DNA of 64,000 nucleotides from Raillietiella orientalis (Eukaryota). The stretch spans positions 62,001-126,000 of the forward strand of contig JAYWIR010000069.1 in assembly GCA_036172245.1 (NCBI GenBank). Reading direction: 5' to 3'. The position numbers and the translations under genes are program-made. Under the pieces are notes generated by a model. It made no database searches and was not told the origin of the DNA. It saw only the letters and a list, made by a program, of their open reading frames with translations. Positions 3,355 through 56,431 of this stretch are shown piece after piece (the first letter of the stretch is position 1; every line of letters starts with the position of its first letter).

Positions 3355-4846
3355 CGCCCCCTGCTTGCGCGCCGTTGATAAACCAAACTGAAGATGCGAA
3401 ATCGAGAATTCAGTCGCTGACGCAATTCTAATTCGAGCATCCTCATGTCAGGAACGTTTGGACGTCGGGGAGATGCAGAGTCCGACAGAGCCAGGATGAG
3501 GAGGGGAGATCGGCCCGGGATGATACGCGAGGAAGGAAAGCGCCTCCGGCCTGGACACAGGCGCATGCGCAGGAACGAGCTCCCTCGTCGGAAAGCTCCC
3601 GGACCAGAGGAAGACCACGATCCTGCGAAGAACGGCATTGCATAACAGCGCACTTCCTCTTCAGCACGTCGAAGTTCCAGACTTCCCGACGTTGCGTTCA
3701 CCCCGCGCGGCCCGGTTTTCCATTCTTGTACGAGCAGCGCCCACCAGAAACCGCCATCGACCAGTCGCGCGCAAGATGAGCGGTGTAGGGCATGGCCACT
3801 CGTGCAGTTCCTCAGCATCCGGAACGGGAAGATCGTAGTCGAGAGGCACGACGACGGCGATCGAGGGGACCGCGCGCGAAAGTGCGAGCCAGTGGGCTCC
3901 TCCTTCGACCAGCTCTCCCCAGGAGCGACTGGATACGAGGTGACGAGGAAGAAGCGGTCGGGAGAGCGCCCCTTCCTACCCATATGAGTCTTGCACTGAG
4001 GCACCGGAGCGTGCAAGAGGGAGAGAAGAGAGAGAAACGCACGGGATTGACTCTCTGTGTCGCCGATAAGGAAGTCGCAGCATCCTTCGGAGAGGTCATC
4101 GAAGTTCCCAGAGATCTGAAGTTTCGTAAGCGACGGATGGAGATGGAGTCGGCAAGGAGGAAATCGCGCGCGCTCTAGCGTGGCCTCCCCGCTCGAGGGT
4201 TGAAACAACGGGGTCTGCGGATATCGGTTCGTGAGACCGCAGCCTCGGCTGGAGGGTGGTCGGGGAAGAGGGTGAAGGATGCCCTAGTCATTCTGCAGCA
4301 CATCCTCTGCGGAGCACAAATAGGAATAACGTTCTCAGGAGGACAACTGGAGCAATCCTGGTGTCCCGCATCGGAGGCCGCGCGGCTGCGGTCTCGGCTC
4401 GTGGCACCGAGCGTCGAGGGTTCCCGCCCGGGGGAAGGATCAACGCTGAGGAATGGATGCGTCGTGGGTTTCGAGTCCCCTCCCACCAGATGATGCTGGT
4501 TGGCCTTGTAGGCTTCGGGTGCGGCATGGGTCAAAGCCGTTGATTGGTCCTTCCACGGATCGGTTGCGAAGATGGATCCATTTCCCCCTCGGAGAGGAGG
4601 GATCCTCTATCGAGTACCACGGAGCTGGTGGATTGATACCTCTCCTGAGTGTGAAGTGCGCGCTACTCGCTGAAGGAAGGCTCCCTTCGGAGAAATCGGG
4701 AAGCGTCCCTTCGGGGTTCTCTTCAGAGGAGGAAACCAGGAGCGGTTTCCTTGAGAGCTCCCTCCGGAGAAGAAGTAATGAGGAGTGACTTCTTCCGGGA
4801 AGTCCATCCGGAGGAAACAAGGAAGAGGTTTTCTTCGGGATTTCCC
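3355..4846. repeat. 1.49-kb inverted duplication, copy 1 (partner 44978-46479)
   Basis: Reverse complement of 44978-46479, with about 3 substitutions seen and one 10-bp indel (GAAGGACCCC duplicated in copy 2). The ORF track shows identical ORFs on opposite strands, e.g. 3792-4178+ vs 45656-46042-. Confidence 0.97.
4371..4846 (+). mobile_element. tRNA-derived SINE family copy, 3'-truncated, inside the duplication
   Basis: Colinear with 23325-23877 and 59873-60379 (GGCCGCG head, GATGGATCC...GTACCAYGGAGCTGGTGGATTGA body). The B box is degenerate in this copy. Confidence 0.6.
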
Positions 4847-4850
4847 AACC

Positions 4851-8449: not shown

Positions 8450-11400
8450 GCACCCGATTTCTTTTCCTCCGTCCGAGTCCTGGGAGTTTTCAATTCTTCC
8501 GATACGCCGCTGTTGTGAGATTGCCCCACTTCTCTAGAATGAAGTGTAGAACCAGTCCTCGATATGTGCAGTCCTTCCAACGTGCCTCTTCCAATTAGGC
8601 CAATGTGTGCACGTCAGGAAAAGCGACATCCACTATGATCAATGTTTTTTCTCCCTGGAACGCTAGATGAACTGACTTTAACTTCGCGTTTCTCCCCTGG
8701 GTGATCTGGCCGGGGGCTATGAACTTTCGGCATTTTAGGGTTGCCTTCTTGGCCTAGACCATTGACCTTTGATTTTACTCACACTCATTATTGGATTATT
8801 GACGTGCCTGCTGGGGATATGGCCTGAGTGCTATTCGCATTTTGGTCATTTCCTGCATGGGCAATCAGCACCGTCCCTGCCACGCGATAACATCACACGC
8901 AGAAGGTTGAGCCAATCTGAACGGAAAAATCTATAATCTGTAAATTGAAAGATGGCAAATGTCCCGAAGTTCCACGTTGTCCGATGCCGAATGTGGTCTT
9001 CTCCCATAGTTTTCCATACGCGAATAGGGTGGTAGAGACAATTCTCATAGGCAACGCGGCATTGCTGGATCACCCATCAGTCTATCAGGCTTGCTTGCAG
9101 GAAGAAATCAGTTGCACCGACTGACTCTCCAGGAAAATCCACGATCAGCATCTTTCTCCAGAGGAATTTTGGGAAATTGGCTCCTGCGTGCGTGAATACA
9201 TATGATGTACTTGGTCTCTGCAAATGTGATAAGCGCATACCTCAGCACGCAAGCGTGGATGGATACCCAGGAAACTACCAGAGCCAAGCCTCGAGCCCAC
9301 CATCCGGGAAACAGCTTATCTAACTCTTATCTTGGATCGGAAGAGCATCGGTTCACCTTCTTTTCTTATTAAATGGAAAAAACCCTCGTAGTCAGCTGAA
9401 TGGACCGTTCTGCCTTGGAAGTGTGAAACTTCAGATCGAAGAGAGTGACTGAAATGGAGTTATAGATAGATATTCACGGCGTTACCTAGCCCGTAGAAGC
9501 ACTGGTTTGCTAGGGAGACTTGGACATGGTGGACAATCGTTCTAATTTTCCTGACTGCGAATGGCCAATGTCCTTCAAAGAGAACTGCAAGCCGATGGAG
9601 ATGCATTGGTCTGAAGAAAAGAAAACCTTTAGGGCATCCAGTTTCCACCGGGGGGGGGTCCACAGTCCATCAGGATTTGCTCCCTGAAAAGTACTCTCCC
9701 TAGCTTGTCGATCCCAAACGGCTTGCCAAGGTATTTGCACGCTTAAGACGTCTCGAATGCCCCGCATGGTTTCTTCAGGGAGTCCTTGATCCACAAGGCG
9801 AACGGTGGCGAAGGCTTGGCTCCACAGATGAGAAGCCTTTTCTTCTTCGAGCTCCCAGAGTTGCTCTTGCAGCTTTTCCGGTCAATAAGTTTCTGTGAAC
9901 ATGCTGAAAATCCTCTCATTCTACCCACTTTTTGGAATTTATCCACTTTAAATAACTGGCTCGGCAGTTCTGAATGAGAAAACCCTGAGATCCATGGTCT
10001 ACATCTCCTCTCTTCATACCATACATGTGATGAAGCCTCTTAATCAAAAGTGCGAAGGTCGCCTCGAAGGCCATGTCGAAATCGTGTAGTCCGACACACG
10101 GTCCTTGCAGCATGCCTCTTCTCCTTCCGCTCTCGAAATTGGAACGCCTGAAGGCAGTAGGCACTGGGGTCCCGGGTGACCACTTTGGAAGCGCGCCCAG
10201 GAGCAGCTCTTATGCCGGCCTCTGGAAGACCTCCTGAATGACTGGACGCAGCGGTCCCGGATCGCCGTCACATCCCTTCCCACAGCTCTGCCTGCCCTCA
10301 GGGAAAATGATGACAGCGGCCAACCGGCGGAATGAGAGTTCTTCTGCACAATCTCAGGAGTCGAGAAACTCCTGGACGGCTGCAAGACATGCGAGTTGGC
10401 GGATGCCGCCGCTCCTCGTTCCCGGGAGAAGGGACTCCTTCGGTCGAGCGACCTGCTCGGTGTGCCCCCCTCGAAGAACTCGCGATCCCTGCCCTGCGTG
10501 CGGACACGCTCCCTGTTCCCACTGCGTTGGCAATGTTGAGGAAGTTCTGCTGTTTCTGCACTGAGGATTTCGGTTCAAGACATCTGGTTTCCGGGGAAGT
10601 TGCCTCCTTGAACTGTTCCAGGCGCAGGGCGATACAATCGTTCCCTGCAGATCCTGCTGGACTGCAGTGTCCTGGAGGACATGTGGTGGAGACTCCCTTC
10701 AATGCCCCATCAACCGCAGGACTCCCTCCGTTTCGGACTTGTTGCAGCGCTTCTTCACTCGAGGTGGGCTGACGTCGGGCGCTGTGGTCGCAACGGGCTG
10801 CCGCATCCACGCCATCCTCACAGTCCGCTCCGTGATGGAGTGTCGTTCGCAGGGAAGGGAGGCCACCTGCATGGCAGCCTGCTCCGTGAGATCGGCTGCA
10901 AGGTGGCCTCACCCGTCAGAAGAGGTCGTCAGTGAGATAACCGCCATACGCAGCCGCATCTTGAAGGAAAGGAACGAATGAAACCAAAGGCCCCTGTCCC
11001 TACGCTCCTGTCTCATTTTACTTAATCTTTTCTTCTTCTGTTCCCTACTTTCTTAGAAGTCGACCTGCATGCCCGTGGTCATCCCCAATGAATTGCTTTT
11101 TTTTTTCTTCTTTTTTCGAGCATCTCTGGTATTCAAGGGACGTTGTTCCCCTCTGACTTGAGGCTGATTTTTTAAATAAACATCCCGGGGTGATTCGTAG
11201 CAAACCAGCATGCCTCTTTCAGCTCTGTCTGTGCGTACTTGTCAGGGAAAGTGACTCCACCATGACCTCTCTCCCTTCTATCTGGGACACTAGATCTGGC
11301 TTTAACCTTTGATTTGTTCCCTGGGTGGTCTTGAAAGCAAATATGGGCACAGAGAACCCACGAGCACACCCACTTTCGTCCGGCCCACAGGGACGTACCC

Positions 11401-16349: not shown

Positions 16350-17950
16350 ATTGTGGTTTATTTCTTAGATAAATAGACCATAAGTCAGAGGGGAACAACG
16401 TCTCTTGAATACCAGAGATGCTCGAAAAAAGGAGAAAAAAAAAAGCAATTCATTGGGGATGACCACGGGCATGCAGGTCGACTTCTAAGAAAGTAGGGAA
16501 CAGAAGAAGGAAAGATTAAGTAAAATGAGACAGGAGCGTAGGGACAGGAGCCTTTGGTTTCATTCGTTCCTTTCCTTCAAGATGCGGCTGCGTATGGCGG
16601 TTATCTCACTGACGACCTCTTCTGACGGGTGAGGCCACCTTGCAGCCGATCTCACGGAGCAGGCTGCCATGCAGGTGGCCTCCCTTCCCTGCGAACGACA
16701 CTCCATCACGGAGCGGACTGTGAGGATGGCGTGGATGCGGCAGCCCGTTGCGACCACAGCGCCCGACGTCAGCCCACCTCGAGTGAAGAAGCGCTGCAAC
16801 AAGTCCGAAACGGAGGGAGTCCTGCGGTTGATGGGGCATTGAAGGGAGTCTCCACCACATGTCCTCCAGGACACTGCAGTCCAGCAGGATCTGCAGGGAA
16901 CGATTGTATCGCCCTGCGCCTGGAACAGTTCGGGGAGGCAACTTTCCCGGAAACCAGATGTCTTGAACGAAATCCTCAGTGCAGAAACAGCAGAACTTCC
17001 TCAACATTGCCAACGCAGTGGGAACAGGGAGCGTGTCCGCACGCAGGGCAGGGATCGCGAGTTCTTCGAGGGGGGCACACCGAGCAGGTCGCTCTACCGA
17101 AGGAGTCCCTTCTCCCGGGAACGAGGAGCGGCGGCATCCGCCAACTCGCACGTCTTGCAGCCGTCCAGGAGTTTCTCGACTCCTGAGATTGTGCAGAAGA
17201 ACTCTCATTCCGCCGGCTGGCCGCCGTCATCATTTTCCCTGAGGGCAGGCAGAGCTGCGGGAAGGGATGTGACGGCGATCCGGGACCGCTGCGTCCAGTC
17301 ATTCAGGAGGTCTTCCAGAGGCCTGCATAAGAGCTGCTCCTGGGCGCGCTTCCAAAGTGGTCACCCGGGACCCCAGTGCCTACTGCCTCCAGGCGTTCCA
17401 ATTTCGAGAGCGGCAGGAGACTCAGGGGTGAGCTACCAGAAGCGAGGACAGATACCTCAGGGGTCAACCAAATCCATTCCTCCTAGGACTGGATTTGGCT
17501 ACCTTCCTAGGACCTAGAAAGTCGCTTGTTCCATGGGACGGGAGCGTGCGGTAAACATGGCTTCCGTGCCGTTAGCTGCCTTCCCCATCTAGGAAGCTGC
17601 CTGCTAGATGGCCAACCAGAAGAGCAGAGAAAGAATGACCGCTTCGGTGGCTCCATGGTGGTCGTCTCTCAGCGATGACATGGAGCTGTCGATGTGGCAC
17701 AAGGGTGTGGTTTGTTGCATTCTCTCCCGACACGAAATGCGGCAGTAGATGAGGAGCATTTTTGACCTTGAATGACAATTCAGGGACTTCAACAGGTTCC
17801 CGTGTTGTGACCCAGGTCGCATTGGCAGTCGCACGTCAAGGCAGCGGAGTCCAGTGCCCCCAGGTGAATCAGGACTCGCTAGATGTAGCCTAAGGGGAGA
17901 AGCAAGCTTCTCGATGGATGATTTGCACCGCAGTGGCTCGGTGGCTGAGG
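16350..17950 (-). mobile_element. L1/Tx1-like LINE 3' fragment (longer copy)
   Basis: 16382-17420 is the reverse complement of 10120-11159. It extends 5' to a GGTGL (GGLGL-like) motif near 17850. Minus-strand AATAAA near 16357-16362. Confidence 0.75.
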
Positions 17951-18887
17951 ATGCGGATCCCAGTGTTCCGGAAGCAGTAGGTCTTTCCACGGTTCAGACA
18001 AGCTTCACGGAGAAAGGCGTATTTTCCCATGGCGACGACCATACCGCAGCTCCCCATACCTCCGTCCACCGTAATTTCGGAACTAGATTCCGGGGCGTCG
18101 CCCGCATCGTGGTCTCTCCCTCGCGACCAGGCGGCTGTGATGGCTAGCGGCGCTCGAAGCGAATCGAGGCAAAGAGGCGAGTGGGCACGCGGATGGGCGG
18201 GAAAGGCCGCCCGGAAGGTCTCCGCGACCTGCGCGCATCGGGCAGGTCGCAGCAGGAGGTGGTTTTTCTCCTCGTCTCAGGGTCAGCCGACTTCCACGAG
18301 CTCCCTCCTGCGTCCCGGAGTTTTGGTGGTGCTTGCCCGATCCGGCGCCGGACTGGTATCGCCGTCGGGTCAGGGAAAAGGAATGAAGCTCGTGAGCCTC
18401 TATGTCGTCCTCCACGAGCGCACGGATAGATGGCGTCACGGCCACGCCGTCCATTTCGGGATACGAAGGTGGTGGTGGAGAGGGATCGCTCCGGAAGAAG
18501 ATAAGGCGATGAATGATCGGCTTGTCTTTGCACGGCCTATCTTTGCCCGCCGAGGCTCGATTGATCGTCTGAGCCGAGATAACCGGGAATCGCTCTACGG
18601 CAGGAACAAACGTATCCTGCTGCTCCCGTCCATTTATCAATTCGCTCCTCGCTGGAGCTGCTTGCGCCTGCGCGTTGAGAGATCGGCCGCTCTCCGAGCA
18701 AAGGGCGGGGGAGAGGGGAAAACTCATGGGCCGAGGTCGGACCCCCTTCATGCCGCCGACCGAGCGCAGTGGGAAAGGGAAGGAGCCGTTCCGAATAACT
18801 GGGAGGGGCTATGCCTGCTGCGGACGGCTTGGAGTGCCTCGTGCTCGGGAGGGCACGGCTCGCTGCCACCGCCGTGCGTGCCGTGCC

Positions 18888-18918
18888 CTTTGATCTTAGC
18901 CAAAAGGCCGAGAAGCGA
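18888..18918 (-). pseudogene. U2: U2 snRNA 5' fragment (nt 2-32), tailless retropseudogene
   Basis: Minus strand TCGCTTCTCGGCCTTTTGGCTAAGATCAAAG matches the conserved 5' end of U2. Flanked by GCCGTGCC at 18880-18887 and 18920-18927. Confidence 0.92.
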
Positions 18919-18964
18919 GGCCGTGCCGTTCCCGAGGGCTCCGAGATGGACACGCGAATGCCGA

Positions 18965-37800: not shown

Positions 37801-38813
37801 GTGAGTAGGCGCTCCGCGACCCTCGCTGGTTCCTGGCTTCCAAAACCGCCTGCAGGCTCCGGAGGTGGGGTGGGGTGGAGAGCAAAAGGAACGGGGATTC
37901 TTCCTTCACACCCGCAGCTTCCTCTCCTTTTCCTATTAGTGGAGAGTCCGCGAACTGTGCGGAATAACGTTAGGAACCTTCTGACTCCTCTTTCTCATCA
38001 CCGTCATCTGTTCTTCTTTCTTTTCCTTGTCGTGATCCAAACCTTCCTCTTTCTCTTGTTACCTCCACTCTCTTACCATTTTCCCTGCATCTCCTCTTTC
38101 TTTCCTCTATCTCTTTTTCCTCTTCCTCTTTCCCTTTACCACCACCACCATCATCTCTTCTTCCTCTCCTTCTTACTTTTCTTTCTCTTGTTGCCTTCAC
38201 CCTCTTGTCATTCGCCCTGTTCCTGCTCGACTGTCCAGAGCTGCCACCTGCTAGGATACGCACCCTACTGCATGCACCTCTTGAAGTAGGTCGTTTCTTC
38301 TTTACCACGACAGAAACCGAAGCTTCTATATAGCAGGAGTAGCATGGACCGCTCCTACTGCGACTTGGTCCTGATCCATGAGGCAGACATGCTCTGCTCA
38401 GCTGCAAAGGGGCACCCTGCAGCTCCAGAAGCACCGATGAGAACCTCTGGAGTAACGGAGAACTCGCGTGGCGAAACCAGCGCTCTGGGCAGCTCCAGCG
38501 ACGCCTAGTCCACGAGGCAGAAGGGTCGAGAAACTCTCACTGGGGGGAGGGGGGAATTGAGCTGACCGCCTCCTCTTCCTCCTTTTCCGGTGCTCTCCGC
38601 TCCTCACAGCGCCGTCGCCGCGTATTCTTGCTCCTACCTCTTTCCTTCTGTGGCTCCGAGAGATCCCACACTCTCCTGGAGAACGTGGGTGTGCAGATCC
38701 GGCCGTGGGCCGGGTCACCCCCGCTAGCTCCTAGTCGGGCGAATGAGGAGCGGCAACAGCTCCCGGGAGACGTAGCTTCTTCATCAACGAGGATGGTTCG
38801 CTTCCACTTCCAG

Positions 38814-39128
38814 AGGCCTACGCACGCATCCTCGGGCCAGCGGAGATCCACGTGCAAACGGGGAACACCATCCGGCTGTCTTGCGCGGTGCACACGACCT
38901 CCGGCGACCTGGAGCTTCCCTCGGTCCGCTGGGGCAGGAGGAGCAACTCCTCGGGAGACGTCCTGCCGCCGTCCCGAGAGGGCAGACTGAAGGTCTACTC
39001 GAGCCGCGCAGACGGCGGGGTCTTCGAGACGATGGTTATATCCAAGGTCAATCCAGGAGACAGCGGGACCTACGTATGCACCCCTTCTAGGGGCAGGAGC
39101 TCTTCCGTTCAAATCAACGTGCTGACCG
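38814..39128 (+). CDS. dpr: Dpr-family Ig protein, Ig2 exon
   Basis: ARILGPAEIHVQTGNTIRLSC...VRW...DSGTYVCTPS...SVQINVLT. TTCCAG acceptor, G|GTAGGT donor, phases 1/1. Confidence 0.94.
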
Positions 39129-39314
39129 GTAGGTGGAGCCTCTCTCCCCCCGCCTCACCCCCCTCTCTCCTCGTGCCCTTTGACCCTGTTCCCTTTTTCC
39201 TCGCTCCTTCTTTTAGAAGAAGAAAACAAAAAAAAAAACCCATCCGGCAGTCCCTCCGGCCTTTCCCGCCCGCTGCCTCCTCGCACAGAGAAGCCTTCCC
39301 TTTTTCATCTGCAG

Positions 39315-39472
39315 ACGAGCGCCCCGCGGCCATGCAGCAGGACAGCAGCGGCGGCGGCGGCGGCGGCCGCTCGGGTCAGCGAGCCGCAGTTTCCCCCCTC
39401 CCGTTCCTCCTCCTCCTCCCCCTCTTCCTGCTCACCGGGTGGAGGACGAGGCGAAGATGCGGCGCCTTCTAG
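39315..39472 (+). CDS. dpr: Dpr-family Ig protein, last coding exon (GPI-signal-like hydrophobic tail)
   Basis: DERPAAMQ (Dpr GE.PAAMQ motif), Ser/Gly linker, PLPFLLLLPLFLL, TAG at 39470-39472. TGCAG acceptor. Confidence 0.9.
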
Positions 39473-44939: not shown

Positions 44940-45463
44940 GCCTCGGAGGAAGGAGTGTTTTCTTCTCATGCTTGGTAGGGAAATCCCGAAGAAAACCTCT
45001 TCCTTGTTTCCTCCGGATGGACTTCCCGGAAGAAGTCACTCCTCATTACTTCTTCTCCGGAGGGAGCTCTCAAGGAAACCGCTCCTGGTTTCCTCCTCTG
45101 AAGAGAACCCCGAAGGGACGCTTCCCGATTTCTCCGAAGGGAGCCTTCCTTCAGCGAGTAGCGCGCACTTCACACTCAGGAGAGGTATCAATCCACCAGC
45201 TCCGTGGTACTCGATAGAGGATCCCTCCTCTCCGAGGGGGAAATGGATCCATCTTCGCAACCGATCCGTGGAAGGACCCCGAAGGACCAATCAACGGCTT
45301 TGACCCATGCCGCACCCGAAGCCTACAAGGCCAACCAGCATCATCTGGTGGGAGGGGACTCGAAACCCACGACGCATCCATTCCTCAGCGTTGATCCTTC
45401 CCCCGGGCGGGAACCCTCGACGCTCGGTGCCACGAGCCGAGACCGCAGCCGCGCGGCCTCCGA
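44940..45463 (-). mobile_element. tRNA-derived SINE copy that extends beyond the duplication boundary
   Basis: Reverse complement of 4371-4846, plus continuation ACCAAGCATGAG...ACTCCTT matching 23828-23855 and 60329-60355. Confidence 0.6.
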
Positions 45464-46479
45464 TGCGGGACACCAGGATTGCTCCAGTTATCCTCCTGAG
45501 AACGTTATTCCTATTTGTGCTCCGCAGAGGATGTGCTGCAGAATGACTAGGGCATCCTTCACCCTCTTCCCCGACCACCCTCCAGCCGAGGCTGCGGTCT
45601 CACGAACCGATATCCGCAGACCCCGTTGTTTCAACCCTCGAGCGGGGAGGCCACGCTAGAGCGCGCGCGATTTCCTCCTTGCCGACTCCATCTCCATCCG
45701 TCGCTTACGAAACTTCAGATCTCTGGGAACTTCGATGACCTCTCCGAAGGATGCTGCGACTTCCTTATCGGCGACACAGAGAGTCAATCCCGTGCGTTTC
45801 TCTCTCTTCTCTCCCTCTTGCACGCTCCGGTGCCTCAGTGCAAGACTCATATGGGTAGGAAGGGGCGCTCTCCCGACCGCTTCTTCCTCGTCACCTCGTA
45901 TCCAGTCGCTCCTGGGGAGAGCTGGTCGAAGGAGGAGCCCACTGGCTCGCACTTTCGCGCGCGGTCCCCTCGATCGCCGTCGTCGTGCCTCTCGACTACG
46001 ATCTTCCCGTTCTGGATGCTGAGGAACTGCACGAGTGGCCATGCCCTACACCGCTCATCTTGCGCGCGACTGGTCGATGGCGGTTTCTGGTGGGCGCTGC
46101 TCGTACAAGAATGGAAAACCGGGCCGCGCGGGGTGAACGCAACGTCGGGAAGTCTGGATCTTCGACGTGCTGAAGAGGAAGTGCGCTGTTATGCAATGCC
46201 GTTCTTCGCAGGATCGTGGTCTTCCTCTGGTCCGGGAGCTTTCCGACGAGGGAGCTCGTTCCTGCGCATGCGCCTGTGTCCAGGCCGGAGGCGCTTTCCT
46301 TCCTCGCGTATCATCCCGGGCCGATCTCCCCTCCTCATCCTGGCTCTGTCGGACTCTGCATCTCCCCGACGTCCAAACGTTCCTGACATGAGGATGCTCG
46401 AATTAGAATTGCGTCAGCGACTGAATTCTCGATTTCGCATCTTCAGTTTGGTTTATCAACGGCGCGCAAGCAGGGGGCG
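44978..46479. repeat. 1.5-kb inverted duplication, copy 2 (partner 3355-4846)
   Basis: Reverse complement of 3355-4846. Confidence 0.97.
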
Positions 46480-47200: not shown

Positions 47201-48469
47201 AATGGGAGAGGAACTTCCCATCACCACCGTCCGGAATTTATCCTCTTCTTGCGCCAGGTGCGACGCGGAAAGTTCACACCCAATTCCCAGGAATTGGATG
47301 GAAGAGGGCACAAGAGTCTCACATACCGCTGCTCCTCAATCGCAACAGCCAGTCCTTCCGATTCAGCCACCTCTCTCTTTTTCAGCAAATTGTGGTCTCT
47401 TCTGCTCCCGTCCTCCCTGGCAACCACCTGCTTGTGATAAAAGGAGAGGCTGTAGGCAGCACGGTAAGAGGGATCTTTCTTGTGCTCTGCAGGGACTCTG
47501 GAAGACAAGCAGTAGACACGTCTTGGAGTTTTTTTTTTCCTGCGCGGTAGTAGGCCGTAGAGGACAGGACGGGAGACAAAACTGTATTTCAGCAGAAAAA
47601 CGGACCGCTGTCTTGCTACTAGCAGGATGGTTGCCATGGAAGTCGGAATCCGCTAAGGAATGTCGGAAACGACTCACCAGCCGAGGCAACCGGCTCTGAA
47701 AGTGTCTGGTACTGAAGCGTCGAACCTGCACCCGACAGCCAGGACCGAGCCCTCCGGACGCGTTCCGGAGGACGGCAGGTTCCGGCGAGTAAGAGGGTCG
47801 CGACGGTGCGCGCTGAACGGTTGGACGCAAGGTCGCCTGGAGCCGAAGTCGGCAGCGCAGATCTGAATGGTAGCAGCAAATACTTCAGTGAGATCCTGGA
47901 GTTCTGATATGGAGGAGGGTTCCATGACAGTCTTTGAGCACGGTCCCCAGTCAATCCTAAGTTCCCGGACCTCCTATCAACAGTCCCAGATCTGATGTCC
48001 GAATAAACGCTCTCAGCGGAGCTTGAAAACCCGAAAAAAGTGGATTTGCGCCGGTGCTTTCTCAGGATGACTTGGAACCTTGCGTGGCCCTATGCTGTAA
48101 CCAACAGGCACGCCCTTGTTCCTTCGTTCTCATCCGTTCCACTTGAGCAAGAGGGATGGTGGGCAATTTCTGAGACCGATTCTACATTCTGAAGAACGGC
48201 AATCCTTTCGTGAGGTTCATTTCGCAAACTGACCTTCCGAGGAGACCAGGCCGTGTGAGTGACCCTGTCGCTCTTACGAGTCACGCTGGGGTAAGGGAAC
48301 GTTGAACGACGGAGTCCTGCCTCACCTTGCTATGGACTTTGAAGATCTTTTCCTTGGTACTGCCGAGGAAATTCTTAGATCGCGCGAACCCCAATCAGCA
48401 AACAGAAGCAGAACTAAGCTAAAACTCCGAACGTAAACCTCTCAGTGGATGCGCGGCTAACCACTGCCA

Positions 48470-50299: not shown

Positions 50300-51590
50300 C
50301 TGTGGATGTGACGTCACAGCGAGAAGGTGTCGAGTCACTCTGTTGGTTCGCCATTGACGCTTTCTCATGGTTCAGCAGCCCTTCTCAGCACATGAGGGTG
50401 GCATCCTTCTACAGGGTGAGGTGTGCGAGACGACTGTATAAGGCGAGAAATCCGGAATTTGCGGAAGAAACAAACACTTTAGGAATTTGTGGAAGGAACA
50501 AACGCATCATCCCTGCTCGAGGTCATCACTGGGATCGTGGCGCACCAGCTGCGTCACGTTCTCTTTACAGAAGACGGATCGTGGATTACGGACAGCAGAT
50601 CTGTGGTCGGATGGCAGAATGGAAAATTCTGAGGGGGCCATCTGGTTTACAGCCTGCCACAGATGTAATCAGAATTGTCAGATCTGGCTCCATCGCATGG
50701 CTCCATTATAATTCATCGCGTAAGGAGAGCAACTCTTTCTTCAACACCTTTGGAATCCAGCATCCTTAGGTGTTTAAGATCCACTGAAAACTTCCACCAT
50801 CCCTTGGAAGATGATAGATAATGGAGTGACCTGGATATCTCAAATAGCAGCGGTGGGACCCTGGAAAAGAGTAGCCGGGACTCCCGACTCGGTCGAGTTG
50901 CCTCTCTCCGCACTTGGGTAGAAGAACCTCCCCGGATGGGGGCGTCCTCCGCCCTGCAATACGTGCCGCAAAGCTGTGTGAGGTCACACAATTAGTGCCT
51001 TCCTCAAGGAAGGTCTGCTAATCCCTTGGGACTTCTGGGTTGCATGCGAAGGCTTGAAAGTCGTGATGGTGACCTCGTGAAACCAGAAGAACGCGCGTGT
51101 CGGTGCTGCTGGATGGAAGACGAAACGCTGCTTCACATATTGAGCAGATGTAGGAGGCATTTCATGTCCATTGCGCGACACGACTCGATTCAAGAGATGA
51201 TCATTAAGGTCGCAGTGGATGAACAGAAATGGACCCTAGTGTCCACTAACCAGAGAGCACCAGCAACGAACTCCCTCTTAAAACTGGACTTCATGATGGA
51301 AAAAGGGAACCGGTTCATAGTGTTAGACGTCTGCTGCCTGTTCGAGGGTGTAAGAGATGCGTTCAGGGAAGCTAGGAGAAGGAAACAGGAAGAGTACGAG
51401 GAAGTCGCTCTCCAGCTGGGAAAAAAGAGGAAGCAATGCAGGGTGTATGCTCTCAGCATTGGCTCTCTGGGAGCCTGGGATCCAGGGAAGTAGGACCTTG
51501 GTAATTTCTAAGGAGCACTTGAAGATGAGGCACTGGATGGTGGCTTAGTGCATCCGGTACTCCAGAGACATGCATGCAATCTACGTCAGA
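50300..51590 (+). mobile_element. NeSL/Utopia/R2-superclade RLE non-LTR remnant; ORF 51026-51493 encodes CCHC knuckle plus restriction-like endonuclease
   Basis: CRCC...ETLLHILSRC, ARHDSI, LKLDF, IVLDVCCLFE, K...Y, IGSLGAWDP form the full RLE motif set. Upstream WSDLDISN is RT3-like. Confidence 0.85.
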
Positions 51591-51754
51591 TGAAGGACTG
51601 ACAAACAGATGCAGCCGGGGAACCCCAGCGGTTAGCTATCGCGAGACGAAGAACAGGAAGCCGAGGAAGGGACATACTGAGGGACAATGAGTGCCCCAGA
51701 TGAACAGAGGCAGAATTCAGGAAGAATGTCAGGAGCACTTCCCGTAACATGTTA

Positions 51755-52860
51755 TTTAATTATAAATCAAAATAATAAAAATGTGACCTCTTGCGCACAA
51801 TTCGGAGTGGACACATCGAAAATTCATCCCTAGCCATGGCATCGAGCCCTGTGGAAACACCCAAAGCCTTCAAAGCTAGCCGGTTAAGATGCCGAAGATC
51901 CGAGCGAACTCGACGCAACCCAGCTTGAATTCGAAGCGGACGTGCAAGGGAGCCACGGTGTCCTGAGGATTCGCATCTGCTGCGAGAGGGTGCGGCGGAC
52001 CGACAGAAAGACCTGTGGCGTGTGGTGGACGTACTGCATGACAGCGAACAAAGAGCACAGTTTGGGTCCACGCACCCCCCTGTGAAGTGATGCCGGCGGG
52101 CGTTGCATGGGAGTCCCCAATGCAGCAGCATCAATGCCGACTCCTGCAACTTTAAGGGAAGCGTGAGGGTGTTCATGAGCACCGGGGCCACTGCAGGTCT
52201 TACTCTGGGACAACTAGCAGCACGAACCAACGCAAAAGTCCATGAAGTAGAGCAATCGGGGTCACAGCGTTGGTGAGCTGACCCGTGGTCCATTTGCTCA
52301 GTCTTTCCACCTTCCCGAGATTTCCGCAGTAACCACCCATCTAGAAGCAAGACTGCTGCCCATGTGTTCCCTGAGAGGGAGCAGAGCGGCTGTGAGGGAG
52401 GTTCTGCTTGCCCATGCACTTTCGCGGGATCTTCCAGGATCTCCCGGAGCATGCAGTTGTTGTTACGCGCGCACAGGAAACGTCGCACCTCTTTCGCGCT
52501 TGGTTCCTGGGTCCTCTTTCACGAGCGGACGGTTCCCTGCAACCAGGCGCTACCGTTCGCGGGACGGCACGAGATCCATGCGTTTTTCCTCGCCAGCGTA
52601 CCACCTGCCGAAGGTGCAGGCCGCCGTGGATGAACTGCGTGGAGGGAGCGAAAGGATAGGCGCGAGTCCCACGCTGCCGGTGGCTTGCTGGACGAGATGT
52701 GCAGGTCGGCTCCAGGTGGTGTTCCAGAGGTTTGTCACAAGGGCGAATGTTCGAAATTGGGGCTGCAGCTCCATTCGTTTCAGCTCAGGGAGGACCCTAG
52801 GCCGCCGTCTCGGCGCGGAGCACACAAGTCCTTCAGGCGTCTAGGGGCCTCCATTGGTCC
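51755..52860 (-). mobile_element. L1/Tx1-like LINE 3' fragment
   Basis: LPLKLQESALMLLHWGLPCNARRHHFTGGCVDPNCALC (zf-RVT-like). Confidence 0.8.
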
Positions 52861-53625
52861 CAGAGGGCGATCCGGAGGAGGTTCTTTTTCCGTTTAATGC
52901 TGCATGGAGGGGAGTTTACAAAAATCAGGGGGGCGAGTAGGGGAGCCACGGACGTGTTTTAGTGATGTGGCACACTGGTGGAAGCCAGAAACCACGGATG
53001 TACGCGTTGACTGACCGGGACTGGAAGTTGATCCTCCGGGGTCATTTCAGTCCGGTCTTCCAAAATGGCACCCAGAAGGCAACAGACGGGAAAACACAGG
53101 ATGGCAGGGAGGGCTGCTAAGCAGATTTTCTTGGTGTCCCACCCGGCTGGGTGAAAGCTCCTGTGCTTCAGATGCTTCCGATGAAGATGCAGGTGGTTTT
53201 CTTTCCATTCTTTTTCTCTCTCCTCCTCACCTCGAGGTCCTGCTGTTGCTAGTAGAAACCGAGCCGTTTGGGGGCAGCGGCAGACTCGCAGTCCCTGGGT
53301 GGACCCTGCAGCTTCCGCGTGTCCTCATCGAGGGAGCAGCACGAAGGTTCTTCGGAATGTTGTGACCTCTATGATGGAATCTGTGACCCTGTGGTTGCGA
53401 CAGAGGACTTCGACCGCATCCATATCGGGAAGGTTGCAGATCCATCCTTCGCTGGGCAGATGCCTGATAAGCAAGAAGAGAAGATGGGTGGAACGGCCTC
53501 AAATTCTCTCCTTCTTAGCCCCCTCCCTCCTCTAAATAGGCGAGAACGATCGGAAGCTGTCGTCGGTGACCAGAAGAGACCATTAGCCGAGGGAGGCGGG
53601 ATGCAGAGCGGAGAAGGCCTTAGTG

Positions 53626-53655
53626 CTTTGATCTTAGCCAAAAGGCCGAGAAGCG
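53626..53655 (-). pseudogene. U2: U2 snRNA 5' fragment (nt 3-32), tailless retropseudogene
   Basis: Minus strand CGCTTCTCGGCCTTTTGGCTAAGATCAAAG. Flanked by GCCTTAGTG(CTT) at 53617-53628 and 53658-53669. Confidence 0.92.
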
Positions 53656-55089
53656 GAGCCTTAGTGCTTCCGCTCTCCCTTCGGCCTCATGCCCAATTTT
53701 CCAAGAACTGTTCTTTTGCCTGCCGTCGCCTATGCAACCGCCCCTCTTCCGTGCCGGACGACGCGAGGAGAGAGAAGGCCGTAGCTGCAGCTCCCAGCTT
53801 CTCCCTTCTTCTCCCCTTCCTTCCCTCTCCCCTAATGCTCAGTTACAAAAAAAATGGGACGCCTTAGGGGAGACTGCCACCCCGCTGGGGGAAAAAGGGA
53901 AGTGCCCAGAGCGCACCTGGCACGAATTTCCCTACGGGCCATCCCGCACATGCAGCTCACTCGATGGGTCCTGGAAGAACATTTAGGTGCTCCAAGCTGC
54001 GGTTTCCTTCTCCGGATCCTCCGAGAAGCTGGAGGAGAACGCGGATGCTCTTTTGGACCACTGCGTCTCGTCCTCCTCCCATCCATTTCTCTTCCTCTTT
54101 TCCTGTTCCCTCGCTTCTTCCTTCACCGGAAACCACGAAGGCCGGGGTTTTCGGCGGGCACTTTGTAGCTGGAAGGCGCATCCCGGCTGAAGCCTCGGGC
54201 AGGGGGAGCAGGCAAGGGCGCAAGGCAGCGTGCGTTTAAGGCGCTGTCGTTTGGTGAGGGAGAGAGAGCGAAGAAACCGACCCACCAGCGACCACGAGGA
54301 TGGAACGCTGACCGAAGTAGACTGCAGATCTCTGTTGACCCTCCTGTGTCCTGCTGGAGCGCGGAAGAAGGCGTTTCTCCAGAAGGAAGGAGGGAAGAGG
54401 GAGGCGAACCCTTCACCCTAGGTCACGCACGCTGTATCGATACGTGGCAATAGCTGGACCCTCCTCTCCCCTTCCAGCCCCATGCAACTTTTTCGCTGCC
54501 GACTCAGTTCACCTCCGAAGTTCCTTCCAGGAGTTTCCACAAGTGATTCTTCTGCGGGTTCGGGAGGCTCGCCCCAGTATGAACCCAGTGGTGCTCCCGA
54601 GATGGCCCTCGGGCGGCGGAGGGACCCGCGGTCCAATGCCCCCTTGGTCCTTCGCTTTTCAGTTTCCCGATTTTCTTACGCGGAGAGGACTTGCACGAGA
54701 CGAGGAGGCGCACGTGTCACGCTTCAGCCTCTTGAGTTTTGAAATACGCGACAGCGCAGGCGAAAGAGCATCAGGGAGTTGTCCAAGGTGGACATCCCTT
54801 CAGCTTTGCGAGTGAGCAGCGTCTCTCCCTCTTCCCGAATCTCTTCCTGAGTTCGCGGGAAGGGTGGTCTCCTTCCTCGCCGGGTGCCTCCGATGCGCAT
54901 GCACGTACCTCCGGAACGAAATCGCCGGCAGCGGTGCGTGGTCCACTGATCGGGCCTTCCCCCTCGGCGGACGCAGACTTCCCTCGATGCCAAAGCCTGA
55001 CGGTCAGCTGCTAGGCGAAGAAAGGAGACGCCGCAAGCCGAGGGAGAGGATGCTCCGCGGCGGCGACCTCGTGCAGTGATGTCATTTCT

Positions 55090-56431
55090 GGGACTGCCGA
55101 TGATCAGCATTCCCTCGCAGGACCAGAGGCAAAGGGGAACGAATGGATAATGTGCAGCTTCGCCAACTCCACCGTATGGCTGGAGGAGACTGCTGGTACG
55201 TGGGCGAAGTTAAACCAGTGGAGAATCCTGGAACCGCCTGCGTCTCGGCATCTACACCCGCTGCACGCTGCGGAACATGATCGAGTGTCCCGCCAGAAGC
55301 ACGTGGGTGGAGACGACCCCACTGGCCACGGCGCTGCCCTTCCTAAGAAGGGCGCTTCATAACAGCCGGAAGCCGAGGTGGCAAGTCACCTGCCGGATAG
55401 CGGGCAAGGAGAAGGAGTTAAGTGGATGGACCATGAGGGAACTGGCTGACGCCGCGACCCCAAGCGTTCTCCCGCGAGGAATCCAGAGATGGGGCGAGCT
55501 GCTTGGCATCCCGCAGGATGACCTAAAGTGGCCCCTGTTATTTAGAGACACATCTACCCTCCCCTTCAAGTGGCAGGAAACGGCGCTGCTGTTGTTGCAC
55601 TGTGGTCTTCCCTGCAACGCGCGCCGCCACCACTGGACGTTGGGGAACGTGGGACAGAACTGTGCAGTGTGAGGGGAGAAGGGATCCCTCCCCCATCTGT
55701 TAGTGGACTGCGCTGCCCTCCGGACCTTGTGGGAACGTTTTGCTACGACCCTCCCTATGCCGGTCGGCAGCACCCCCAGAGACGTAGTGAGACTCCTCTT
55801 CGTGCGAGACGCCCTGCAACCAGCCTCAACCCTGGCAGAGCGGGGAAGAGTGAATCCTGAGTGTGCCAGGTGTGGGGAGCGGGAATGTCTCCCCCACCTT
55901 ATAGTTGACTGCGCTGCCCTCCAGCTTCCGTGGGAACGTCTCGGAACGACCCTTGGGATACCGGTTGGCGGCAACCCCAGAGATGTTTACAGTCCTCTCT
56001 TCGTGCGGGACGCCCTGAGGCCAGCCGCAGCCCTGGCAGCACTTTGCTGCATCTGTGGGATTGTGGCGGCCTGGAGTGAAGCCGAAGATGAAGATGCCAA
56101 CGAAAGGGACGTCATCCCGTATGCTGTTCGCTTCCTGCAGAGAGCTACCGGATGGCCCCGGCTGGGTGGATTAAAGGAGGACCTCGAGGGAATCCTGTAG
56201 AGAATGGACCCTCCTCCTGGTGGGCAGTGATCCCTTCCCCTCCCTCCAGAAACTTTTTTTTCGATTATTGTTTTATTTTTATCTTTTTGTTTCCCCCCCC
56301 CCCTCCCCTTCCACTGATGAGGAGAGTCACGCTGGTCTGCGTACCGGTGTCCCGTCAGGTCCGGCGAGATGTTGGCCGTTATTGGGGTCTTGTACCACGT
56401 ATTGTATTGATCATGGAAGAGTTTGAATAAA
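55090..56431 (+). mobile_element. Best-preserved L1/Tx1-like LINE 3' fragment (ORF2 C-terminus with doubled zf-RVT/CCHC)
   Basis: One frame from 55277 to 56200 with a single TGA. LPFKWQETALLLLHCGLPCNARR...CARCGERECLPHLIVDC. T-rich UTR, AATAAA at 56426. Confidence 0.85.

Follow-up and report, generated by a model that had tools for sequence, protein, structure and literature searches.

Tailless copies of the U2 snRNA 5' end at unrelated sites in the genome of Raillietiella orientalis

We analyzed a 64-kb stretch of DNA from Raillietiella orientalis (referred to as the window here) and found that the U2-derived insertion at its positions 18880-18927 (copy 1) is one member of a genome-wide family of U2 5'-end stubs lying at mutually unrelated sites. 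We are highly confident that copy 1 belongs to the class of tailless (3'-truncated) U2 retropseudogenes and has no function. In the fuller reading, to which we assign a probability of roughly 0.6, it arose by internal priming of reverse transcription on intact U2 RNA, with a LINE of the APE type as the likeliest source of the enzyme.

The insert of copy 1 is 32 bp long and is flanked on both sides by the octamer GCCGTGCC (Table 1). As a reference we used the genome's own U2 5' half, taken from contigs C389 and C482, which hold halves of real genes. U2 positions are given in the numbering of this genome, which has one extra A before the branch-pairing stretch relative to the Rfam consensus and runs one above the human numbering from nt 31 onward. 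The minus-strand match to U2 nt 2 to 32 reported in the preliminary description is exact over all of its 31 nt, and the C found in place of nt 1 is either an untemplated base or a later substitution. The insert has no run of A or T, which bears out the claim that poly(A) is missing. The bracketing direct repeats hold up as well: a junction-adjacent repeat of equal score turned up in 0.3 to 0.4% of flank-swapped controls, and on the plus strand of the 64 kb the 8-mer occurs only at its two sites in copy 1 (on the minus strand it occurs once, at 18852-18859). An alternative reading of the repeat, with 12 bp and one mismatch, stems from local GGCAC repeats. Searching the window with a U2 19-mer at up to three mismatches gave two matches, with 0.06 expected. 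The proposed confirmation with the Rfam U2 model failed: copy 1 is unlisted at E ≤ 1 and copy 2, the second stub of the window, reaches 25 bits (E 0.58), neither being long enough for the model. Outside its U2 portion, the surroundings of copy 1 (400 bp) are single-copy, and a genome search for an empty paralogous site, with this single-copy flank, found none. The criteria of Noll 2015 (PMC5322556) comprise a 5' end complete within 5 nt, a length of at least 30 nt, a 3' truncation of 10 nt or more, a TSD of 8 to 35 nt, no oligo(A), and a target complementary to the last 2 to 18 nt of the copied RNA. Copy 1 spans nt 2 to 32 with 31 nt, has an exact 8-bp TSD and no oligo(A), and shows 0 to 1 nt of microhomology between its target and the U2 3' end.

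Table 1 Coordinates of the features discussed (plain positions refer to the window; the others refer to the assembly or to fetched loci)
Feature	Position	Strand	Details
TSD at the 3' end of U2 stub copy 1 (GCCGTGCC)	18880..18887	+	8 bp, exact
U2 snRNA nt 2-32, tailless (copy 1)	18888..18918	-	31/31 identical to the genome's U2 5' half
Single base at the position of U2 nt 1	18919	-	C, not A
TSD at the 5' end of U2 stub copy 1 (GCCGTGCC)	18920..18927	+	second copy of the same 8 bp
GC-rich inverted repeat, left arm	18844..18859	+	right arm = empty target (TSD + 18928-18936)
Second independent stub (copy 2)	53617..53669	-	U2 nt 3-32 at 53626-53655, 12-bp exact TSD
Utopia-clade RLE retrotransposon, decayed 3' tail	51053..51783	+	51053-51484 tblastn E 1e-27; not joined to U2
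L1/Tx1-like ORF2, weak C-terminal remnant	55490..55795	+	tblastn E 8e-5
Interrupted U2 loci	G000:C389, C482, C30:2720076, C30:2726593		L133, L134, L221, L201
Long-TSD Utopia-clade tails, 5'-truncated, outside U2 genes	G000:C1:1122600-1123600, C25:1277680-1278660		L281 67-811 (85 bp), L282 48-833 (83 bp)
U4 head of L1/Tx1-group LINE	L255 5150-5289	-	loci L225-L274, e.g. G000:C71:70000-79900

Near position 18880 we found neither an RLE or RT match nor a U2 3' half, and the 64-kb window as a whole contains no U2 promoter and no U2 3' half; the promoter is present at four other places only. The missing promoter and 3' half speak against an origin from a U2 gene in decay or from duplication at the DNA level, with an 8-bp repeat arisen by chance, as do the identity of 31 out of 31 nt with abrupt ends and the control rate given above. 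The GC richness of the region, its local GGCAC repeats, and the fact that 4 of the 92 copies examined across the genome did duplicate together with their flanks would fit such an origin, but for copy 1 we still regard it as extremely improbable.

A search of the 210-Mb genome with the exact 22-mer of the U2 5' end returned 139 matches, while the reversed control returned none. We examined 92 of the 139 (90 among the matches listed, plus both window copies) and dropped four duplicates sharing flanks, which left 88 independent stubs. Neither of the outcomes that the preliminary description had feared from such a search, namely, a lack of TSDs or one flank common to all copies, was observed, and its central claim that the U2 5' end was retro-inserted at unrelated sites stands. 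The stubs start at nt 1 (47 copies), nt 2 (22), nt 3 (11), or nt 4 (8). Their 3' ends, strictly scored, fall at nt 32 (5 stubs), 33 (2), 34 (20), 35 (13), 36 (12), 37 (23), 38 (6), and 42 (1), or before nt 32 (6); that is, 68 of the 88 end at nt 34 to 37, with peaks at G34 and G37, and 87 have ended by nt 38, leaving a single one beyond it. The ends at nt 32 to 38 (81/88) correspond to an unpaired stretch in the Rfam U2 structure line, and we take nt 34 to 37 to fall inside the branch-pairing stretch. Copy 1 is atypical in ending at nt 32. Among stubs matching U2 perfectly up to the base in question, nt 37 is matched in 21 of 33, nt 38 in 5 of 21, which is the chance level, and nt 39 in none of 5; alignment columns past nt 37 are near background, and the downstream sequences are unrelated among the 88 copies.

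TSDs of 7 to 16 bp flank 29 of the 88 stubs, compared with 2 of 523 flank-swapped controls (22 of 88 versus 0.3% of 874 controls by an alternative score), and 17 of the 29 TSD-bearing stubs show at least 2 nt of 3' microhomology (null, 0.17; P = 4e-7). In copy 2, the two TSD copies (53617-53628 and 53658-53669) overlap U2 nt 30 to 32, corresponding to 3 nt of microhomology. Position 1, scored in the 64 copies intact at nt 2 and 3, is A in 42, C in 11, T in 6, and G in 5; a cap-templated G at the 5' junction was discarded, given that positions 1 and 0 show no G excess. An A-rich target consensus of the L1 type is absent from the base counts of the 29 stub targets, which show no A-run, and the bases upstream of the targets are C/T-rich and G-poor.

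The clustered ends, the TSDs, and the microhomology together make up the anatomy of target-primed reverse transcription begun inside an RNA, and from this anatomy we infer internal priming on intact U2 by a LINE enzyme. A LINE protein would make staggered nicks at an arbitrary site, and the freed DNA 3' end would prime reverse transcription directly on the U2 RNA, in the unpaired stretch after stem I (nt ∼31 to 37), usually aided by a pairing of 1 to 7 nt. The cDNA would then run to the U2 5' end, and gap filling would leave a short duplication. The likeliest enzyme would be that of an APE-type LINE, for example, a young and abundant L1/Tx1-group family whose elements begin with an entire U4 snRNA. 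The same internal-priming model is found in Noll 2015 (PMC5322556) and in the accessible part of Doucet 2015 (PMC4476161).

What counts against this explanation is that 59 of the 88 stubs lack a scored TSD, be it due to age, to short TSDs, or to another route. One other route would be endonuclease-independent patching, in which U2 RNA or cDNA is captured at an existing DNA break, with copy 1 sitting at a hairpin arm. Besides the copies without a scored TSD, the lack of a clear target consensus and the messy joints seen at some stub loci fit this idea, as does the finding that the sites of copies 1 and 2 have the lowest folding z-scores among the 29 stub targets (−2.1 for the empty site of copy 1, the lowest of all). 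However, TSDs of 7 to 16 bp in one-third of the copies imply staggered nicks, and a general hairpin preference of the stub targets was rejected, as there was no enrichment over flanking controls (P = 0.42). We consider patching to be very unlikely, and the GC-rich inverted repeat at the target of copy 1 is probably incidental.

The process is not restricted to U2, given that U6 stubs with TSDs are present in the same genome. The 5' 30-mer of U6 (up to two mismatches) gave 31 matches, and among the 30 loci fetched, 1 is full length and most end at nt 36 to 58; TSDs were scored at 6 of the 30, versus 5 of 433 controls. At one among these six TSD-bearing loci (L018/L168; G000:C3:1470485-1470560), a U2 stub lies directly before the U6 stub, and the same short repeat brackets each of them. 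The ratio of U2 to U6 matches is about 4.5 here and 666:143 in human, although the criteria differ. In the first 98 U2 rows of Table S2 of Noll 2015 (PMC5322556), the human stubs have a modal length of 35 nt, which corresponds to nt 36 in the numbering of this genome, and 80 of the 98 are no longer than 39 nt. Since Utopia, an element clade inserting into U2 genes, is not listed for mammals in the accessible part of PMC4640811, the human mode in the same region shows that the end point needs no U2-targeting element. The two species differ in how often stubs run past the Utopia site: at least 41 nt are reached by 17 of 98 human stubs but only 1 to 2 of 88 here (P = 5e-4, with methods that differ), and at least 46 nt by 8 of 98 versus 1 of 88 (P = 0.04), the human lengths being RepeatMasker spans that may overrun.

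All four loci in the assembly that combine the U2 promoter with the U2 5' half are interrupted at nt 33 to 38, and none of them lies in the window. No match in the assembly spans the Utopia site intact (pattern of nt 19 to 51). Intact U2 genes must nevertheless exist and have probably collapsed out of the assembly, as suggested by the position of the U2 cluster at the end of contig C30. On C389, the U2 promoter and nt 1 to 38 are followed by a 5'-truncated element, which retains a zinc knuckle and an endonuclease tail of the restriction-like type, and then by U2 from nt 40 onward, with nt 28 to 38 duplicated at the 5' junction. An RT found in the U2 cluster has R2 proteins as its nearest matches. 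Of 46 Rfam U2 matches we fetched 30 loci, all of which lack nt 1 to 38, and Utopia coding remnants occur within 1.5 kb upstream at 10 of these 30. U2 genes split at the reported site and U2 halves without their first 38 nt agree with Utopia as described in the accessible part of Kojima and Jurka 2015 (PMC4640811), which also reports weak specificity, in crocodilians, comparable to that seen here. In contrast to a Utopia insertion, copy 1 has no Utopia sequence, no U2 3' half, and no U2 promoter upstream.

Utopia is also widespread outside the U2 genes. For its C-terminal part, 150 matches were scored among 2,041 candidates in the genome, and the Utopia-clade tails fall into many families that are 28 to 56% alike. 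U2 heads directly capping Utopia in sense were found at four ectopic loci (L072, L094, L132, and L148) among 107 distinct heads, including two real genes; a fifth U2-headed match (L022) is T-rich and doubtful. L123 joins U2 nt 1 to 38 to 85 nt of Utopia tail, and by eye there may be a degenerate repeat of 9 bp. Among five ectopic Utopia-clade tails, two have TSDs of 83 to 85 bp, and the others have none or a doubtful 8 bp. This long-TSD pair falls within the diversity of the U2-joined families, and its duplications differ from the absence of TSDs in arthropods and the 20 bp in reptiles given for Utopia in the part of PMC4640811 consulted. No excess of TSDs was found around 29 Utopia-U2 3' pieces, and no long TSD at 30. 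These dispersed pieces (L031-L060) consist of the Utopia 3' end, U2 from nt 40 to its end, and at least 50 nt of 3' flank; seven continue into an inverted U2 fragment, and most of the pieces have a C in the Sm-site region. A remnant of a small-DNA-virus Rep gene (L166 1872-2884, minus strand; G000:C57; Pfam Viral_Rep, E 7e-6) lies directly upstream of the Utopia copy on C57, which is U2-headed but situated outside a U2 gene.

Dispersed and U2-headed Utopia copies away from the target uphold the premise of lost specificity in the preliminary description, which had explained the stubs as by-products of U2-targeting elements that lost their site specificity. This premise stood, with Utopia abundant and off target (150 scored of 2,041; nt 1 to 38 missing at 30 of 30 fetched U2 loci). 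The by-product part did not fare as well, considering the same end in human, the U6 stubs, the lack of 83- to 85-bp TSDs at all 88 stubs, and the L1/Tx1 elements examined being tied to U4. Specifically, a Utopia (RLE) protein without target specificity might have copied U2 RNA to random sites. The large number of dispersed tails from many families, the four ectopic U2 heads directly capping Utopia, the possible 9-bp repeat of L123, and a candidate 8-bp repeat at the Utopia tail of the window are in line with this. However, long TSDs accompany two of five ectopic tails and none of the 88 stubs, the Utopia-U2 3' pieces show neither a TSD excess nor long TSDs, and arthropod Utopia is reported to lack TSDs in the portion of PMC4640811 seen. 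Further, the stub targets, C/T-rich and G-poor upstream, are unlike the U2 site, and neither the U6 stubs nor the human hotspot needs Utopia. Long TSDs at the stubs themselves were rejected: local alignments above 26 occur at 11 of the 88, of which the junction-adjacent ones correspond to short TSDs (13 to 22 bp) and the others are distant or of low complexity. Overall, we judge a Utopia-driven origin to be possible but unlikely.

The edge of the stubs lies 1 to 2 nt before the Utopia site, and this keeps alive the idea that the template was something other than intact U2. In that case, U2 genes interrupted by Utopia would give rise to transcripts whose U2 leader is cut near the junction, e.g., by a ribozyme that cleaves itself at the 5' end of the element, and is then copied by any LINE RT. 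We find this unlikely; either driver would be compatible with it. The interruption of all four U2 promoter loci at nt 33 to 38, together with the absence of a match intact over nt 19 to 51, argues for this idea, and so does the survival of matches along U2, which drops to chance by nt 38 (5/21) and to 0 of 5 at nt 39. Off-target U2-headed Utopia shows that read-through RNAs, or template jumps, do get copied. Weak support also comes from 10 independent ectopic copies with T38, five of which continue with C, the base that opens Utopia on C482, and none with A, the base of U2. On the other hand, the human mode is at the same place without Utopia, and there must be uninterrupted U2 genes, which the assembly has probably lost by collapse. 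T38 is seen at chance level, which argues against a cut behind the junction, as a leader made that way would frequently retain this base.

The 5' end of a full-length Utopia, located behind U2 nt 1 to 38, is conserved in two copies (L134 329-405 and L132/L166, G000:C57:797603-797850), and by eye it has what we take to be an HDV-ribozyme-like look in both. A ribozyme at this end is no more than a guess: the 5' end on C482 gave no Rfam match at E ≤ 10 and a folding z-score of −0.24 relative to shuffled sequences, and this also weighs against the leader as template. In an extended version, which we likewise hold to be a doubtful proposition, the stubs would be fossils of U2-promoter capture: Utopia would be transcribed from the U2 promoter, free itself at its 5' junction, and release a capped U2 leader (nt 1 to 37/40). 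Most U2 genes would then be occupied by Utopia, possibly with an HDV-like ribozyme, and LINE enzymes would paste the leader at a mammal-like density. If true, this would account for the abrupt stop at nt 37, provide first evidence on Utopia expression, and mean tailless retroposition by hairpin-ended, snRNA-associated LINEs outside vertebrates. The accessible part of Kojima and Jurka 2015 (PMC4640811) makes no mention of a ribozyme, read-through, or promoter for Utopia.

Returning to internal priming on intact U2, the candidate source of the enzyme is a LINE family of the L1/Tx1 group, a label that rests on domains and nearest structures and does not separate L1 from Tx1. The best 30 of 150 scored RT loci (3,358 candidates) form one young family with APE and RT whose members are 75 to 99% alike. 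The element starts with a complete U4 snRNA (75.6 bits); where copies are arrayed in tandem, the end of one falls at nt 19/20 of the U4 heading the following one, and dispersed copies have TSDs of 9 to 19 bp with the U4 head inside. The 3' end of most copies consists of a hairpin and a few A's, and four copies share a 5' extension derived from the L263 locus. A related family (about 29% identical), which forms tandem copies by the U2 cluster, resembles human L1 ORF2p more closely than R2; its array at the contig end beside this cluster (L222; G000:C30:2731901-2740705) includes a 970-amino-acid open part of ORF2 and a zinc-knuckle ORF1. U1 genes alternate with RT matches at a spacing of about 5.5 kb (G000:C51:1016080-1021772, C71:407506-413195, and C188:29810-35502), suggesting a U1-linked LINE array.

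The TSDs of 9 to 19 bp at 14 junctions in 20 fetched L1-group loci, together with the absence of long Utopia-type TSDs at all 88 stubs, favor an APE-type enzyme, which we regard as the probable driver if the stubs are tailless retropseudogenes. This comparison of drivers covers the best 30 of the 150 scored RT matches and five ectopic Utopia tails. Several features do not fit: stub TSDs are shorter than those of the L1 group (mean, 10.8 versus 13.9; P = 0.007, or P = 0.08 with both counted from 9 bp), the upstream bases differ, with C at position −1 in 14 of 29 stub targets versus 2 of 14 L1-group copies, and the A-rich L1 consensus is missing. The 3' end of the candidate family is also not of the "relaxed" poly(A) type. 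As with Keno, an APE element of the Tx1 clade that targets U2 (PMC4494074 and PMC4640811, as far as accessible), LINEs of the L1/Tx1 group with APE and a link to snRNA genes are present here, but those examined join U4, U1 genes lie beside RT matches, and none is joined to U2 nt 40. At the 20 fetched L1-group loci we found U4 or unrelated flanks and no Keno-type junction of an APE Tx1 element with U2 nt 40, in keeping with a tie to U4, not U2. We found no published report of a U4-targeting LINE, with limited coverage of subscription papers and Repbase Reports.

Tailless retropseudogenes were reportedly described by Schmitz et al. in 2004. The stubs share the features given for this class in Noll 2015 (PMC5322556) and the accessible part of Doucet 2015 (PMC4476161), being 5' complete and 3' truncated, without an A-tail, with TSDs and 3' microhomology, with U2 as the commonest snRNA source and with the same end region. 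Noll 2015 (PMC5322556) screened 12 vertebrates and 3 plants, reported U2 stubs in therians, anole, and maize (8), with 666 in human or 233 per Gb, and tied tailless copies to L1 with "relaxed" poly(A). The TSD-bearing stubs here amount to ∼215 per Gb (extrapolated as 29/88 × 139/0.21 Gb), compared with the human 233 under differing criteria. The differences from the tailless copies of that study are the invertebrate host, the lack of an A-rich L1 target consensus, the near absence of stubs past nt 38, and a hairpin-ended, U4-headed LINE of the L1/Tx1 group as the candidate driver. The dispersal of U2 5' sequence by retroposition also resembles SINEU, the U1/U2-headed SINEs of crocodilians (PMC4494074, accessible part), and a few U2-headed Utopia chimeras exist here; unlike SINEU, the stubs have no common body, tail, or promoter, each being an independent dead insertion.

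We found no published report of tailless snRNA stubs in invertebrates, with limited coverage of subscription journals and Repbase Reports, which agrees with the earlier statement that they are not described in arthropods; the class itself is known, and the invertebrate host group is mainly what is new. A comparison of HSP70 gave a weak lean toward an arthropod host: the leading named full-length neighbors come from a damselfly, a centipede, a spider, and a sawfly (88%), with molluscs, an annelid, and vertebrates at 87 to 88%. Copy 1 alone is a neutral fossil. As a family, the stubs show that tailless retropseudogenes, described as a by-product of relaxed L1 in therians and lizards, also occur in an invertebrate and at a comparable density. 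This suggests that internal priming on the unpaired stretch of U2 stems from the RNA itself and from the general workings of target-primed reverse transcription rather than from mammalian L1 of the poly(A) type. The stubs might be used as presence/absence markers. Their genome context is more interesting than the stub itself, with Utopia interrupting all assembled U2 genes, duplications of ∼84 bp at off-target Utopia-clade tails, and a young U4-headed LINE family.

Finally, the statement that remnants resembling both U2-targeting clades fill the window was not confirmed. A tblastn search with six peptides from Utopia and L1/Tx1-group elements of this genome, which older and unlike families could escape, recovered a single Utopia-clade tail and a single, weak L1/Tx1-like one, neither adjoining a stub, and none of the 57 open reading frames of the window has an RT or endonuclease Pfam domain. 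No long TSD was found at the Utopia tail, whose candidate 8-bp repeat is doubtful. No tRNA gene was found in the window. An internal, diverged fragment of 28S rRNA at 47597-47716 (plus strand, 54.9 bits) probably extends toward 47900 and is possibly a retro-copy or an rDNA relic. Two segments of 1.5 kb, 40 kb apart and inverted (3355-4850 and 44974-46479), are 100% identical and represent either a very recent insertion or an assembly artifact, and a second duplicate of about 1 kb (10120-11180 and 16361-17420) is 97 to 98% identical. An open reading frame at 38747-39469 (plus strand) with immunoglobulin domains (Pfam Ig_2 and V-set, E 1e-6) is probably a host exon.
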